A stretch of DNA of 27,873 nucleotides from Myxococcales bacterium (GTDB lineage Bacteria > Myxococcota_A > Polyangia > Fen-1088), in contig JANPFD010000239.1 in the NCBI GenBank assembly GCA_031423255.1, positions 1 through 27,873 on the forward strand, given 5' to 3'. Each line of letters starts with the position of its first letter. Within the stretch, counting starts at the first letter, position 1. Made by a program: the position numbers and the translations under genes. The notes below the pieces were generated by a model, which had not been told where the DNA came from, made no database searches, and saw only the letters and a program-made list of their open reading frames with translations. This document shows positions 6,129 through 14,375 of this stretch, piece after piece.

Positions 6129-6431
6129 TCAAAACTCCACGTTCATCAGGCGACCAAAGATGGCGCTGCCGCCGATCCAGCCGTTGATGTATCCGCGGTT
6201 GTTGCCGATCTGGAAACGCTCGCCCTCGATCGCCTTCACGATGTGCAGATACTCCGTGCCGCGAACCTTGCACAGCACGATGTCCCCGACGGCGATCGAG
6301 CCGATGGCCACCGGCGAGACGGTGCAGAGCTGACCGGACTCGATCCGGGGAGACATGGAGCTGCCACGCGGCTGGAACGCGACCGTCTCGCCGGCCTGGA
6401 GGCGTTGAATGTATCCGGTCGCCCATCCCAT
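6129..6431 (-). CDS. small S24-family peptidase-like protein (LexA/UmuD C-terminal-domain-like, no DNA-binding domain)
   Basis: 100 aa with PRGSSMSPRI...GDIVLCKV...LHIVKAIEGE (a Ser-Lys dyad pattern resembling G-[DS]-S-M ... K of S24 peptidases). GGGAGG RBS 9 nt upstream of the ATG. Confidence 0.55.
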   Translation of the reverse strand: MGWATGYIQRLQAGETVAFQPRGSSMSPRIESGQLCTVSPVAIGSIAVGDIVLCKVRGTEYLHIVKAIEGERFQIGNNRGYINGWIGGSAIFGRLMNVEF

Positions 6432-6436
6432 CTTTG

Positions 6437-7165
6437 TCAGCCTCCCGCCAACTGCTTGCCGAGACGCCTCTCGGAATCGAGGATCGTGTCGGCGGTCAGT
6501 TCGTAGTCCTTCTTCGGAGAGCCCGAGCGCAGCCAGGCGAATTCACGCCAGAGCGCCAGGATGGCGACGCCTTCCACGTGACCGCGGCATCTCTTGATCA
6601 GCTCCTGGCCGTAGGTTGCCATGGCCACGGCCTCGGCGGTGGCGAGGTCGTCGATGAGGTGGGTCGCCGCGGATTCCGACAGGTCGTGGCCGAGCTTGCG
6701 GGCGAGTTCCCAGAGGTAGGCCTGCTTGAGGAGCCGGGCGCGCTTCTTGTCGCCGTCGCGGACTTTCTTGGTCCGTAGATGGGGCGCGGCGACGAGATAG
6801 GTGCACAGGGGGCACCCGCATCCGCAGTCGGACACGCTCCAGGTGCCCGGCTGTTCCACCAGATCGAACGAGGTGAGGAGATACGAGGCGAACATGTGGA
6901 CGAATGCCTCCAGCTTGCCGGGGTCGTCGACCTCCGGGCGCCACCGCGCCGGGATCTGGTCGGCGTAGCTCCGCAGCCAGTCGCGCGCCGACTCGGTCGC
7001 ATCGGCGTACCGGTGGGCGCGATCGAAGGTGATCGTCCCCTTCTGGATGGAGGTCGAGACCCAGCGAAGCAGGCCGTAGCTCTGCCTGTGAAGACTCACG
7101 GCGTTTCTCAAGGCAACGTCATCCAGCATGGTGTCCTCGCATTCGATCGGCAGGGGCGTCCTCAC
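6437..7165 (-). CDS. hypothetical protein with CGCGCPLC Cys cluster
   Basis: 242-aa ORF with a GTG start overlapping the stop of the upstream SPFH gene (GTGA). No recognisable family. Codon usage is consistent with its neighbours. Confidence 0.45.
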   Translation of the reverse strand: MRTPLPIECEDTMLDDVALRNAVSLHRQSYGLLRWVSTSIQKGTITFDRAHRYADATESARDWLRSYADQIPARWRPEVDDPGKLEAFVHMFASYLLTSFDLVEQPGTWSVSDCGCGCPLCTYLVAAPHLRTKKVRDGDKKRARLLKQAYLWELARKLGHDLSESAATHLIDDLATAEAVAMATYGQELIKRCRGHVEGVAILALWREFAWLRSGSPKKDYELTADTILDSERRLGKQLAGG

Positions 7166-8268
7166 ACCAGGTTCAGCAGCTTGTCGCCGATGCCCTTCTC
7201 GGCCACGATGATGTTCAGCTTGCCGGCCTGAGCGATCCTCTCGATGGTCTCGAGCTCGCGCAGGCGCATCAGGGTCGGGTTGTTCTCGAGCAGGCGGGCG
7301 GTGTTGGCCTGGTTGCGGATGGCTGCGGTCTCCTCGCGACGGGTGATGAGGGCGGCCTCGGCCGCCTTCTGCGCCTCGGTCACCTTGTTGAGGAGCTCGC
7401 GCATCTCGCCCGGCAGGATCACGTCGCGCACGCCGAAGCCGATCAGCTCCACGCCGAAGTCGGCGGTGCGGGCGCGAATCGCCGTCGCGATCTCACCGAC
7501 GAAGCTGTCCTTGTCGGCCAGCAGCTCATCCAGCAGGCGCGTGCCCACCGCCGCGCGCAGGGCGAGCTGGGCCTCGCGGTAGAGCGCCTGACGGAAGTCG
7601 TCGACGGCCGAGACCGCCCGGGCGGCGTCGGTGACCTTGAAGGTCACCAGAGCGTTCATGCGCAGGGTGACCTTGTCGCGGGTCATGATCTCCTGACCAG
7701 CCACGTCGAGCACCGCCTCGCGGCGGTCGATGGTGAACAGCTTCAGGTCGGCGATGCCCTTCCAGAAGGCGTACTGGCCCGGCGCCAGGGTCTCGGCCAG
7801 AGCGCCGTCGCGGTAGACGAGGCCGACCGCGCCCTGCGGGACGACCAGGCGCTCGAAGCGGACGCTGTCCGGATCGGAGGCGAAGATCGCGGCCAGTTTG
7901 GCGTGCTCGAAGCGCACGGCTCGCGCGTCGACCCTGTCGACCTTCACACGGCGAAAAGCATTCCACAGGGCGTGGCGGCCCGGCCCGAGTACGGCGTCGA
8001 GGCGGTCGTCGATCCAGACCAGGGCTCGCTCGTGGTCGGCCAGGTCCACGACCGTGGCGTCACTGTCCAGGCCGCCCGCCTTGATCAGAAGATCCAGATC
8101 GGCGTGACGGATCCAGGCATCACGGGTGGACAGTACGTCGATGCGAACCTTGCCGAGTGGGTTCCAGAAGCGATACTTGCCGGCGCCCAGGAGGCGGACG
8201 AACTCGCCATCACGAAACAGCAGGCCGCGCTCGAACGATCGGATCTTGATGGTGGTTAGCGGGTACAT
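7162..8268 (-). CDS. SPFH/Band-7 (stomatin/prohibitin-like) domain protein, cytoplasmic (no TM segment), duplicated N-terminal beta-region
   Basis: 368 aa. The segment QEIMTRDKVTLRMNALVTFKVTDAARAV...followed by a long Ala/Glu-rich coiled-coil tail is typical of Band-7. The motif I.ERG..FR.G.....L..G.Y.FW occurs twice, at aa ~6-50 and ~165-215. Confidence 0.7.
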   Translation of the reverse strand: MYPLTTIKIRSFERGLLFRDGEFVRLLGAGKYRFWNPLGKVRIDVLSTRDAWIRHADLDLLIKAGGLDSDATVVDLADHERALVWIDDRLDAVLGPGRHALWNAFRRVKVDRVDARAVRFEHAKLAAIFASDPDSVRFERLVVPQGAVGLVYRDGALAETLAPGQYAFWKGIADLKLFTIDRREAVLDVAGQEIMTRDKVTLRMNALVTFKVTDAARAVSAVDDFRQALYREAQLALRAAVGTRLLDELLADKDSFVGEIATAIRARTADFGVELIGFGVRDVILPGEMRELLNKVTEAQKAAEAALITRREETAAIRNQANTARLLENNPTLMRLRELETIERIAQAGKLNIIVAEKGIGDKLLNLV

Positions 8269-12650: not shown

Positions 12651-12723
12651 CCGGACGTCGGAGAAGGCGCTCGACCAAACTGACCTCGTGACCGACAGTA
12701 GCCTGCCTCAGCTGGTCCTTCCC

Positions 12724-13614
12724 ATGGGCACGCGCGTCGTGACGCGAGTGGAGATCCGCGCCGACACCGAGCGCGCGCACCGGCCCGTCGGCGCCGTCGC
12801 CGAGATCATCGGCCTTCCCGCGGACTCCCTTCACCGCTACCGGATCCGGTTTGCCGATGGGGGTGAGGCCTCGGTGCGGCGAAAGGAGATCAGCATCCTC
12901 AGCCACTACAAGCAGGAGGAGGCGGGATTGCCTCACCCGATCGTGGAGCGCGATCTCACCCCGTACATCATCTACCGGTGCGTGGTGGGCTCGCGCGCGT
13001 ACGGGCTCGAGGGCTCGGAGTCGGACACCGACCGGCGTGGCATCTACCTGCCGCCAGCGGAGCTCCACTGGTCGTTGCACGGGGCACCCGAACAGCTCGA
13101 GAACGCGGAGACGCAGGAGTGCTACTGGGAGCTGCGGAAGTTTATCGACCTCGCCTTGCGTGCCAATCCCAACGTCCTCGAGTGCCTGTACACGCCGATG
13201 GTGGAGCACGCCACGCCGCTGGCGCACGAGTTGCTGGCGATGCGGGCCCAGTTCCTGTCCAAGCTCGCCTACCAGACGTTCAACGGCTACGTGCTCTCTC
13301 AGTTCAAGAAGCTGGAACAGGATCTTCGCGCCAAGGGCGCCATCAAGTGGAAGCACGTGATGCACATGATCCGGCTCTTGCTCGCCGGGATCACGCTCCT
13401 GCGCGATGGTGAGTTGCCAGTGGACGTCGGTGAACACCGGGAACGCCTCCTGGCCATCCGCTCGGGTCAAATGCCCTGGCAAGAAGTGGAGACCTGGCGT
13501 CACGAGCTCCATGGGAACCTTGACGCCGCCTACAGGACGACGAAGTTGCCCGATCGTCCGGACTACGACGCCGCAGATCGTTTCCTCATCAAGGCCCGAA
13601 GGAGTGCTCTATGA
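12724..13614 (+). CDS. Pol-beta-superfamily nucleotidyltransferase (RtcB-operon-associated NTase family), paralog 1
   Basis: 296 aa from the first in-frame ATG after the rtcA stop (the longer 12022 ORF overlaps rtcA out of frame). Motif GSRAYGLEGSESDTDRRGIY = G[SA]-x9-12-[DS]-D-x-D NTase active site, with a C-terminal helical region. Confidence 0.65.
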   Translation: MGTRVVTRVEIRADTERAHRPVGAVAEIIGLPADSLHRYRIRFADGGEASVRRKEISILSHYKQEEAGLPHPIVERDLTPYIIYRCVVGSRAYGLEGSESDTDRRGIYLPPAELHWSLHGAPEQLENAETQECYWELRKFIDLALRANPNVLECLYTPMVEHATPLAHELLAMRAQFLSKLAYQTFNGYVLSQFKKLEQDLRAKGAIKWKHVMHMIRLLLAGITLLRDGELPVDVGEHRERLLAIRSGQMPWQEVETWRHELHGNLDAAYRTTKLPDRPDYDAADRFLIKARRSAL

Positions 13615-14375
13615 ACAGCCACGACGTGGCCCAGGATCCACGACTTCGCGCGATCGTGCAGGCACAGCCTCACCCGCTCCTGTTCGCAACGGTGAGCGGG
13701 GCTCATCTGTATGGCTTCCCCTCGCCAGACTCGGACTTCGATCTTCGCGGTGTCCATGTCCTTCCGCCCGAGTTGGTCGTCGGCCTCGATGAAGGGCCGG
13801 CCACCATCGAGGTAGCGGAGCGCCGTCCGGATCTGGAACTGGATCTCGTCACGCACGACGCGAAGAAGTTCTTCGGGCTGCTCCTGCGTCGCAACGGCTA
13901 CGTCCTCGAGCAGCTCTATTCACCGCTCGTCATCAGCACGACGGCAGAGCACGGAGAGCTCAAGGCGATCGCCCGCACCTGCATCACCCGCCATCATGTG
14001 CACCACTACCGGGGCTTTGCCGGCACCCAGTGGGATCTCTTCTGCAAGGAGCAGCCGCGACGGGTCAAGCCGCTCCTCTACGTGTACCGGGTGCTGCTGA
14101 CCGGCATTCATCTGATGCGCACGGGGGAGATCGAAGCCAACCTCGTTCACCTCAACGAGGAGTTCAGGCTTCCCTACGTCCCGGAACTCGTCGCGCGCAA
14201 GCTGGAGGGACCGGAGAAAGCCACGCTTGCCGAACAGGACTGGGGCCGGCACGAGTCCGAGTACAACCGCCTTGTGGGCGTCCTCGACGAGGCATCGGTC
14301 GCCAGCACGCTGGCCGAGGAGCCGTCAGCACACCGGGCGCTGCACGATCTTCTGGTGCGCGTTCGCCTGAGGTGA
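13611..14375 (+). CDS. Pol-beta-superfamily nucleotidyltransferase, paralog 2
   Basis: 254 aa. Its start overlaps the previous stop (ATGA). Motif GAHLYGFPSPDSDFDLRGVH is the same NTase signature. Similar length and architecture to paralog 1. Confidence 0.65.
   Translation: MNSHDVAQDPRLRAIVQAQPHPLLFATVSGAHLYGFPSPDSDFDLRGVHVLPPELVVGLDEGPATIEVAERRPDLELDLVTHDAKKFFGLLLRRNGYVLEQLYSPLVISTTAEHGELKAIARTCITRHHVHHYRGFAGTQWDLFCKEQPRRVKPLLYVYRVLLTGIHLMRTGEIEANLVHLNEEFRLPYVPELVARKLEGPEKATLAEQDWGRHESEYNRLVGVLDEASVASTLAEEPSAHRALHDLLVRVRLR

Follow-up and report, generated by a model that had tools for sequence, protein, structure and literature searches.

The 27,873-bp contig JANPFD010000239.1 of a Myxococcales bacterium (about 65% G+C), which is the window referred to throughout, carries a gene for the regulator RtcR, a divergent operon of the RNA repair genes rtcB and rtcA with two nucleotidyltransferase (NTase) genes, an operon for a protein of the SPFH/Band-7 family, and an array of tRNA genes on the strand of the latter operon. 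The reading that we favor, with a probability of roughly 60%, is that these elements make up an RtcR/sigma-54-controlled island responding to tRNA damage and built from three modules that recur together in other bacteria. A preliminary description of this DNA, made from the sequence alone, had recognized RtcR, RtcB, RtcA, the two NTases and the SPFH/Band-7 protein, and all of these gene calls are borne out by Pfam. Absent from it were the array of about 34 tRNA genes at 1482-5738(-), which is the most distinctive feature of the contig, and a second sigma-54 promoter that follows rtcR and points into the SPFH operon. Protein calls were made with Pfam, tRNA calls with ARAGORN and Rfam, and promoters were located by pattern search.

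The tRNA array and its linkage to SPFH and repair genes

The array (1482-5738(-)) packs about 34 tRNA or tRNA-like genes, together representing all 20 amino acids, into 4.26 kb and begins 390 nt past the last open reading frame (ORF) of the SPFH operon. ARAGORN reports 28 genes at its default setting and 32 at a relaxed threshold, and the count is completed by Asp(gtc) at 2556-2627, called by Rfam only, and by two genes recognized by hand in the folds of tRNA-sized spacers, Trp(cca) at 4226-4305 and Arg(acg) at 2872-2948. The Rfam tRNA scores range from 38 to 62 bits, CCA is encoded in only about seven genes, Ile(tat) is present, and three Leu tRNAs (2229-2472(-)) are without the long variable arm. 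With at least 20 dense and co-oriented genes, a density of about eight per kb (at least two per kb being the criterion), a non-periodic layout and divergent tRNAs, the array is of the L-type, and it holds an HNH endonuclease gene (1607-2128(-); Pfam HNH_5 E 1.5e-17, HNH E 8e-13). An HNH homing endonuclease is a conserved neighbor of the cyanobacterial L-arrays, which spread by horizontal transfer, sometimes adjoin rtcB and in Anabaena are silent until translation is impaired, at which point they are co-induced with rtcB (PMC8421152). Unlike the known L-arrays, the one in the window is physically joined to an RtcR/sigma-54 regulon and an SPFH module.

An independent Logan assembly of 8,090 bp contains the 3' end of rtcR, the SPFH gene and both of the ORFs following it in the 4.2 kb that were read, and its length implies that it reaches to the array end, which argues against a chimeric join. 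In a survey of 80 loci, one genome per species, chosen for an SPFH orthologue with 53-58% identity over the full length, at least ten same-strand tRNA genes lie beside the SPFH gene in 23 loci (maximum 39) and at least seven in 29. In 23 of the 80 loci a gene for RtcR, RtcA, RtcB or RlaP, the NTase family discussed below, lies no more than 10 kb from the SPFH orthologue, and six loci combine an array of at least ten tRNAs with Rtc or RlaP genes. The usual order in these genomes is array, a tRNA-like gene known as b7a-tRNA, a leader, and SPFH. The neighborhood comparison that the preliminary description had proposed thus finds SPFH and RlaP genes to recur beside Rtc genes in other genomes. The full set of parts is present in the cultured planctomycete Adhaeretor mobilis HG15A2 (locus L039, NZ_CP036263.1), where an RtcB-like gene, RtcA, 30 tRNAs, b7a-tRNA, SPFH, an RlaP1-like gene (56% identity), one further ORF and an RlaP2-like gene (65% identity) follow on one strand. 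Convergent to this array/SPFH/RlaP cluster, at 14614-16340(-) of the same locus, are genes for a Tpt1/KptA RNA 2'-phosphotransferase, a Macro protein and a NUDIX protein, which suggests a second RNA ligation pathway, of the 2'-phosphate type, within the same island.

Closer to the window, its six nearest relatives (SPFH 70-78% identical) have rtcB, rtcR and SPFH arranged as in the window and no array, and one locus with an SPFH protein 74% identical (L001) encodes RlaP, Pnkp, Hen1, RtcA, RtcB, RtcR and Band_7. A metagenome scan for close relatives returned only homologues of at most 58% identity. In addition, 1625 of 5426 complete E. coli genomes (about 30%) carry a pair of slipin (SPFH) and RlaP genes between a DUF3811 gene and lysC, exemplified by 4998-6922 of locus L128 (E. 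coli STEC639, CP061233.1), and in Citrobacter freundii (L127, NZ_CP151862.1, 4954-8907) rtcR is divergent from slipin and RlaP.

Several further observations concern the arrays themselves. tRNA-Leu genes of 74-78 nt without the class II long variable arm are also present in L004, L008 and L010, and tRNA-Ile(tat) recurs in many of the arrays. The planctomycete contig CAWDRV010000004.1 holds two array/b7a-tRNA/SPFH units (L011 and L023) about 50 kb apart with about 35 and 39 tRNAs, and the presence of two arrays argues for extra tRNA copies there; in the window, a single 27.9-kb contig, the array may likewise be supernumerary to a dispersed housekeeping set. Within and near the array of the window a spacer of about 80 nt is repeated between tRNA genes (1408-1471, 3741-3815, 3889-3975, two copies in 4741-4886, 4963-5050 and 5453-5547); in it a hairpin GGAACCCTGAAAGGGTTCC is followed by CCCTCCCGCGATGG and by a G+C-rich hairpin of the GCGGGCTTTGCCCGC type, and it might act as a signal for processing or as a terminator, or be a miniature mobile element. 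The array is bordered at its far end by a VapC-like PIN gene and a 101-aa ORF (633-1037 and 1025-1330, both (-)). The best NCBIfam models for the former are those of the tRNA(fMet)-specific endonuclease VapC, with scores below cut-off, and the overlapping upstream 101-aa ORF could be its antitoxin; a potential tRNA-cleaving toxin thus adjoins the island of tRNA repair and replacement.

The repair operon and its two RlaP nucleotidyltransferases

The regulator gene rtcR (8656-10257(-)) encodes a CARF-type sensor (PF06956, E 2e-81, residues 4-183), a sigma-54 AAA+ activator domain (PF00158 Sigma54_activat, E 2.5e-47, residues 186-352) and a C-terminal region. Divergent from it and behind a -24/-12 promoter, rtcB (10375-11634(+)), for an RNA 3'-phosphate/2',3'-cyclic-phosphate ligase (Pfam RtcB E 3e-129 over the full length), and rtcA (11637-12650(+)), for an RNA 3'-terminal phosphate cyclase (Pfam RTC E 4e-79 plus RTC_insert), share one operon, the distance from the rtcB stop to the rtcA start being 2 nt rather than the 3 nt first reported. 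The ends that RtcB joins to a 5'-OH are 3'-phosphates or 2',3'-cyclic phosphates, and RtcA converts 3'-phosphates to the cyclic form. The sigma-54 promoter of the rtcB-rtcA-rlaP1-rlaP2 operon (TGGCACGGGCGCTGCA, 10347-10362(+)) is near-consensus, lies 13 nt before rtcB, and recurs in L001 as TGGCACGCTGGCTGCA. Another 52 nt upstream of it is a perfect 18-bp palindrome, ACTAGAAAATTTTCTAGT (10278-10295(+)), which occurs once in the window, with 0 occurrences expected by chance, and is a candidate activator or IHF site; its role is uncertain because it is not conserved in L001, and a function as a shared activator site was rejected for that reason and for its single occurrence.

Downstream of rtcA are the two NTase genes, rlaP1 (about 12724-13614(+), with ATG 12724 and GTG 12688 as start candidates) and rlaP2 (13611-14375(+)), which are joined by an ATGA overlap at 13611-14, as had been described. 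In a search with hidden Markov models both proteins match PF10127 (RlaP, 'RNA repair pathway DNA polymerase beta family') and nothing else, RlaP1 with E 5e-44 over residues 79-289 (151 bits) and RlaP2 with E 3e-54 (185 bits), the cut-off being 23, and they are hence not antibiotic adenylyltransferases, an identity that the preliminary description had named as one that would speak against its proposal. The G[SG]...DxD motif of NTases reads VGSRAYG...SDTD in RlaP1 and VSGAHLYG...SDFD in RlaP2. No match to either protein was found in a sequence search of the PDB. The two share 27% identity (BLASTP), and RlaP1 has an N-terminal extension of about 75 aa (12724-12950(+)), which is without a Pfam match and is common to its orthologues; in the RlaP1-like ORF of L039, which has 338 aa, the RlaP domain starts at residue 118.

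Orthologues of RlaP1 with 47-78% identity are encoded in L001, L023, L039 and L070, and orthologues of RlaP2 with 52-65% identity adjoin the RlaP1-like genes in L023 and L070 and are one ORF apart from it in L039. Since the two genes recur close together in these three loci, they are an old pair of paralogues and not a recent duplication. RlaP genes are furthermore found next to an RNA ligase in different settings, namely the rtcB operon here, RtcBA with Pnkp/Hen1 in L001, and RtcB-like with RtcA in L039. The NTases had been called experimentally uncharacterised, which is outdated, as the RlaP enzymes of P. fluorescens and P. aeruginosa have been found to add one or two nucleoside monophosphates to RNA 3'-OH ends with a preference for mimics of cleaved tRNA (PMC12776372).

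The SPFH operon, its promoter and its leader RNA

The SPFH/Band-7 protein or slipin (7162-8268(-), 368 aa; Pfam Band_7 E 9e-32) is without a transmembrane or hydrophobic segment (maximum KD19 0.97), which makes its previous designation as cytoplasmic a reasonable one. An AlphaFold2 model with a mean pLDDT (predicted local distance difference test) of 84 begins with three beta modules, each of about 65 residues, which are followed by an SPFH alpha/beta domain and a helix of about 60 residues. The best Foldseek matches of this model are the cage subunits of stomatin, HflK/C, QmcA and prohibitin, with E 1e-16 to 1e-11 across the SPFH domain and the helix, and major vault protein (MVP) chains match along the full length including the beta repeats (401-415 columns, E 1e-10 to 3e-9). 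From the predicted structure it may reasonably be inferred that the protein assembles into a soluble ring or cage resembling a miniature vault shell. No NfeD or protease partner was detected beside the gene, the neighboring genes having not been systematically screened, and an origin from phage was rejected, as 50,697 phage records contain no homologue.

A second sigma-54-type promoter, TGGCCCGCCGCTTGCT (8636-8651(-)), was found with one mismatch directly past the rtcR stop and faces the SPFH operon. In an alignment of the window's clade one base varies in the first block, the core TTGG-N10-TTGCT is invariant in five of five sequences (TTGGCCCG in four of the five), and the flanks drift. An element of the form TGGCAC-N5-TTG(T/A)A is likewise found about 200 nt upstream of the b7a-tRNA in all of ten RtcR-type loci from Desulfobacterota, Geobacter and others, in which rtcR is divergent from b7a-tRNA, SPFH, rtcA and rtcB, and the blocks CCAGCGGCG... 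and GT.CCGGACATGG that follow the element in these ten loci are kept in the window. Since the promoter element is present in both arrangements, the b7a/SPFH unit looks like a target of sigma-54 and, by inference, of RtcR.

The preliminary description had also placed a tRNA-like RNA beside the SPFH gene, and this proved correct insofar as a remnant is present, whereas a complete tRNA was not found. The RNA in question is the b7a-tRNA, in full band-7-associated tRNA, so named by Wang et al., who there cite Burroughs and Aravind (bioRxiv 10.1101/312249), and in other genomes it is a tRNA-like gene 250-650 nt upstream of the SPFH orthologue on the same strand. In an alignment of 33 copies variation is almost absent from the D arm and T arm, and covariation links the strands of the 5-bp acceptor stem and of the anticodon stem, with 97% of cells paired as opposed to 31-44% for slid partners and with 115 compensatory cells. 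The 'anticodon' is not conserved and often A-initial (aac, att, acc, aag, agc, aga, agg, agt and others), from which we conclude that the b7a-tRNA is not a decoding tRNA. R1, the covariance model built from these 33 copies, matches the DNA preceding SPFH with 54-85 bits in about 72 of the 80 surveyed loci, the exceptions being L050, where about 2.5 kb upstream have no match at E 1e-12, and seven contigs on which the upstream DNA is shorter than 500 nt.

Between rtcR and SPFH in the window, ARAGORN and Rfam (E up to 10) detect neither a tRNA nor a Y RNA, and R1 recovers the T arm alone (8488-8508(-), 12.6 bits, E 0.003), for which reason a complete b7a-tRNA was rejected. Read by eye against the alignment, the remnant extends over 8485-8523(-) as CTGG-TA-GCTC-GCAA-GAGC-C-ACAGGTTCGAACCCTGT and comprises the 5' acceptor strand, a tetraloop-capped D stem and the T arm. 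R1 reported no match at E 0.001 in the window's clade (L001, L084-L086), and in the E. coli slipin loci the upstream region of about 530 nt keeps a T-arm-like hairpin only, UGGGUUCGAUUCCCA.

The leader that separates b7a-tRNA from the SPFH start codon in other loci has a median of 443 nt, and an alignment of 40 loci (including L009, L011 and L039) reveals in it a leader RNA of about 350-450 nt with long-range helices, in which 26 of 29 pairs have compensatory changes. In this alignment 89% of cells are paired, compared with 38-50% in slid controls, compensatory cells number 230, compared with 37-64 in the slid controls, and none of 500 shuffles reaches the observed values. A search of the leader RNAs of L039, L009 and E. 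coli against Rfam 15 assigned them to no family. The closing helix has a 3' strand that in many loci overlaps with a short hairpin and T-run, much as in riboswitch expression platforms. The SPFH-operon leader of the window (8269-8635(-), about 365 nt) is probably a divergent counterpart of the 5' segment, b7a-tRNA and structured leader of the other loci; it has blocks conserved in five of five clade members and a fold z-score of -2.7. The part that would correspond to the leader RNA, at about 8269-8485(-), has recognizable blocks in common with it, aligned by hand, but the resemblance falls short of statistical significance, as the nhmmer match, which is colinear and sits where expected, has E 0.22, and an automatic alignment to the 40-sequence structure, the placement of which is unreliable, keeps 12 of the 29 pairs.

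Two small ORFs follow the SPFH gene. The first encodes a 230-aa hypothetical protein (6437-7129(-)) with a probable start at ATG 7129, which is preceded by a GAGG ribosome-binding site, and not at GTG 7165, and this length agrees with the NCBI and Logan gene calls and with 20 homologues, mostly of 223-244 aa and three of them shorter. The GTGA overlap with SPFH described earlier needs the GTG start and is probably an artefact of start-codon choice; as ATG 7129 lies 32 nt past the SPFH stop, translational coupling between the two was rejected. Homologues of the 230-aa protein sit in unrelated neighborhoods with HicA, TIR, patatin, reverse transcriptase and methylase genes. The second, a 100-aa ORF (6129-6431(-)), bears a faint resemblance to S24/S26 peptidases, its Pfam score of 20 bits being below cut-off, and has no tblastn match in the other loci compared. 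Since neither recurs beside SPFH or Rtc genes, both were rejected as components of the system and are treated as accessory.

Between this operon and the first tRNA gene (Tyr) lies a terminator-like hairpin followed by a T-run, AAGCCGCCCTGGGAAACCACGGCGGCTTTTTT (5790-5848(-)), which has only a weak match in Rfam, to the sX12 terminator-like family; operon and array, which the hairpin separates, may be transcribed independently of each other. The adjacent stretch of about 280 nt with lower G+C (5849-6128(-)) has a sigma-70-like site (6080-6051) and no Rfam match, and could encode a small RNA or hold a promoter of the array.

The proposed tRNA-damage response island and its alternatives

By analogy with Salmonella RtcR, whose CARF domain is bound by 5' halves of tRNAs that carry a terminal 2',3'-cyclic phosphate (PMC7790460), the regulator in the window would be activated by the products of tRNA cleavage, oligomerise and open the sigma-54 promoter of the rtcB-rtcA-rlaP1-rlaP2 operon. 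RtcA would then cyclise 3'-phosphate ends, RtcB would reseal the breaks, and the two RlaP enzymes may restore one or two nucleotides on 3'-OH ends trimmed by nucleases. The same signal would presumably activate the second sigma-54 promoter and thereby a second module, consisting of the long structured leader, here probably a degenerate descendant of b7a-tRNA plus leader RNA, and the soluble vault-protein-like SPFH protein, which as a ring or cage may bind tRNA-shaped RNA and hold, protect or present broken or spare tRNAs. The mobile L-type array with its HNH gene would form the third module and, if transcription reads through the hairpin at 5790-5848 or the array is otherwise expressed, could provide, for each of the 20 amino acids, a replacement or a decoy once the tRNAs of the housekeeping pool have been cleaved. 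The preliminary description had read the locus as following the Burroughs-Aravind syntax for RNA repair in biological conflicts, with ligase, NTase, end-healing enzyme and scaffold with cognate RNA, and this reading is supported by the RlaP assignment of both NTases and by the recurrence of SPFH and RlaP beside Rtc genes.

A number of observations are in poor agreement with such a unified function. RlaP products end in a 3'-OH and are not directly ligatable by RtcB; the b7a-tRNA, the supposed cognate RNA, is largely deleted in the window and is missing its anticodon arm; the similarity of the 3' part of the leader to the conserved leader RNA is weak (E 0.22); T loops or D arms are abnormal in several tRNAs of the array, which may lack function; and the hairpin at 5790-5848 means that the array may have a promoter and regulation of its own. 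Furthermore, there are no tRNA genes after SPFH in the six close relatives, so that the adjacency is unique to the window within its clade and could stem from a recent insertion, and the order is the reverse of that in other phyla, where the array is upstream of SPFH and not, as here, downstream. The juxtaposition can be viewed in two ways: either the partnership was re-created independently, which would support a functional link, or the array was recently inserted into a variable spot.

The latter view leads to the main rival explanation, according to which the repair locus is real and the array unrelated to it, a mobile L-array with its HNH gene and a VapBC-like pair having been inserted by chance to be used, or stay silent, independently of RtcR. 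This agrees with the terminator-like hairpin between operon and array, with the lack of an array in six other members of the clade, with the two ORFs between SPFH and array, which are non-conserved accessory genes of the kind typical of variable islands, and with the horizontal spread of L-arrays (PMC8421152). We nevertheless regard it as unlikely, since 23 of 80 species-level genomes from several phyla have at least ten tRNAs directly beside the SPFH orthologue on the same strand and six of these 23 also have Rtc or RlaP genes, so that a second and differently arranged juxtaposition in the window is hard to ascribe to chance, and since L-array and rtcB are co-regulated in Anabaena (PMC8421152). 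Still less probable, in our opinion, is that the SPFH protein is an ordinary scaffold without an RNA partner, acting like HflK/C or QmcA as a regulator of proteases or membrane microdomains, and that the tRNA-like sequences are cis-regulatory or processing signals of its mRNA. Such a role would be in line with the best Foldseek matches being membrane-associated SPFH cages, with the survival of only the T-arm hairpin upstream of the gene in the window and in E. coli, which suggests that a complete tRNA-like RNA is dispensable, and with the leader ending in many loci in a hairpin and T-run that overlap the closing helix, as would befit a cis-regulator. It fits poorly, however, with a protein that has no hydrophobic segment and no NfeD or protease partner detected among neighbors that were not systematically screened, with conserved neighbors that are tRNAs, Rtc genes and RlaP, and with a model in which beta repeats, SPFH domain and long helix are predicted to match along their full length those of MVP, a soluble ribonucleoprotein shell protein.

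The damage-response reading can be extended, albeit tentatively and at odds that we rate as low, to the idea that SPFH, b7a-tRNA and leader RNA form a mini-vault, that is, a dedicated ribonucleoprotein partner of mobile tRNA arrays that would store, protect or quality-control spare tRNAs, that in genomes with RtcR would be induced by broken tRNAs together with RtcB, RtcA and RlaP, and whose leader might sense tRNA status by a choice between closing helix and terminator-like hairpin. The likeness to the eukaryotic vault of MVP and vault RNA would lie in the small beta repeats, the SPFH 'shoulder' and the long cap-helix of the modelled protein, in its solubility and in its genomic tie to a small structured RNA. 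The SPFH protein differs in having 368 aa and three repeats as opposed to about 860 aa and nine repeats in MVP, the identity is about 15%, cage formation and the holding of RNA are predictions, and true bacterial homologues of MVP belong to a different family (bioRxiv 10.1101/872010).

Systems of this general kind were predicted in 2016, when Burroughs & Aravind (NAR 44:8525), according to bioRxiv 10.1101/312249, proposed Band-7/b7a-tRNA RNA-repair systems. As far as they are described in that source, the window agrees with these in having SPFH near RtcB, a tRNA-like element upstream, RlaP neighbors and an RtcR regulator, and it departs from them in that the b7a-tRNA is cut down to a T arm and one hairpin, that a 34-gene array is attached, and that SPFH follows rtcR with a sigma-54 promoter of its own instead of preceding rtcA and rtcB. 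With the Salmonella rsr-yrlBA-rtcBA locus (PMC7790460) it shares an RtcR CARF/sigma-54 activator divergent from rtcBA and a scaffold protein with a tRNA-mimicking non-coding RNA behind an RtcR-type sigma-54 promoter, but the scaffold is SPFH and not Ro60 (Rsr), the RNA is derived from b7a-tRNA and not YrlA, two promoters take the place of one operon, and two RlaP genes and a tRNA array are added. The rtcB-rlaP-rtcA operons of Pseudomonas (PMC12776372) likewise have a PF10127 RlaP gene within an RtcR-controlled rtcBA operon, whereas the window has two paralogues with 27% identity, placed downstream of rtcA and not between rtcB and rtcA, and the first of these has the extra N-terminal region of about 75 aa.

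While the kind of system was thus predicted and its NTase family is now characterized, the locus goes beyond a routine example by its all-amino-acid array, by the recurrent association across phyla of array, b7a-tRNA, SPFH, RlaP and Rtc genes, and by a covarying leader RNA that is absent from Rfam. We know of a single functional study of L-arrays, that in Anabaena, and of none of the Band-7 module. Literature linking L-arrays to Band-7/SPFH was not found in a search that did not extend to Burroughs & Aravind 2016, and priority is to that extent uncertain. The locus and its relatives tie these two old puzzles, the L-arrays and the Band-7/b7a-tRNA module, to each other and to RtcR, the ligand of which is broken tRNA, and they amount to a testable model in which tRNA cleavage is sensed, breaks are resealed, trimmed ends rebuilt and spare tRNAs supplied. 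If correct, such a system would counter the anticodon nucleases of phage-defence systems, colicins and toxin-antitoxin modules. Tractable models are Adhaeretor mobilis HG15A2, which has array, b7a-tRNA, SPFH, two RlaP and RtcA/B, as well as E. coli strains with slipin-RlaP, and Citrobacter. Annotation of defence genes with PADLOC gave no match for SPFH, the RlaP proteins or the two small ORFs and only generic matches to HNH. On the other side of the repair operon, genes for an OmpR-type response regulator and a histidine kinase (14409-16636(-)) are convergent to its rlaP2 end and are probably unrelated to it.

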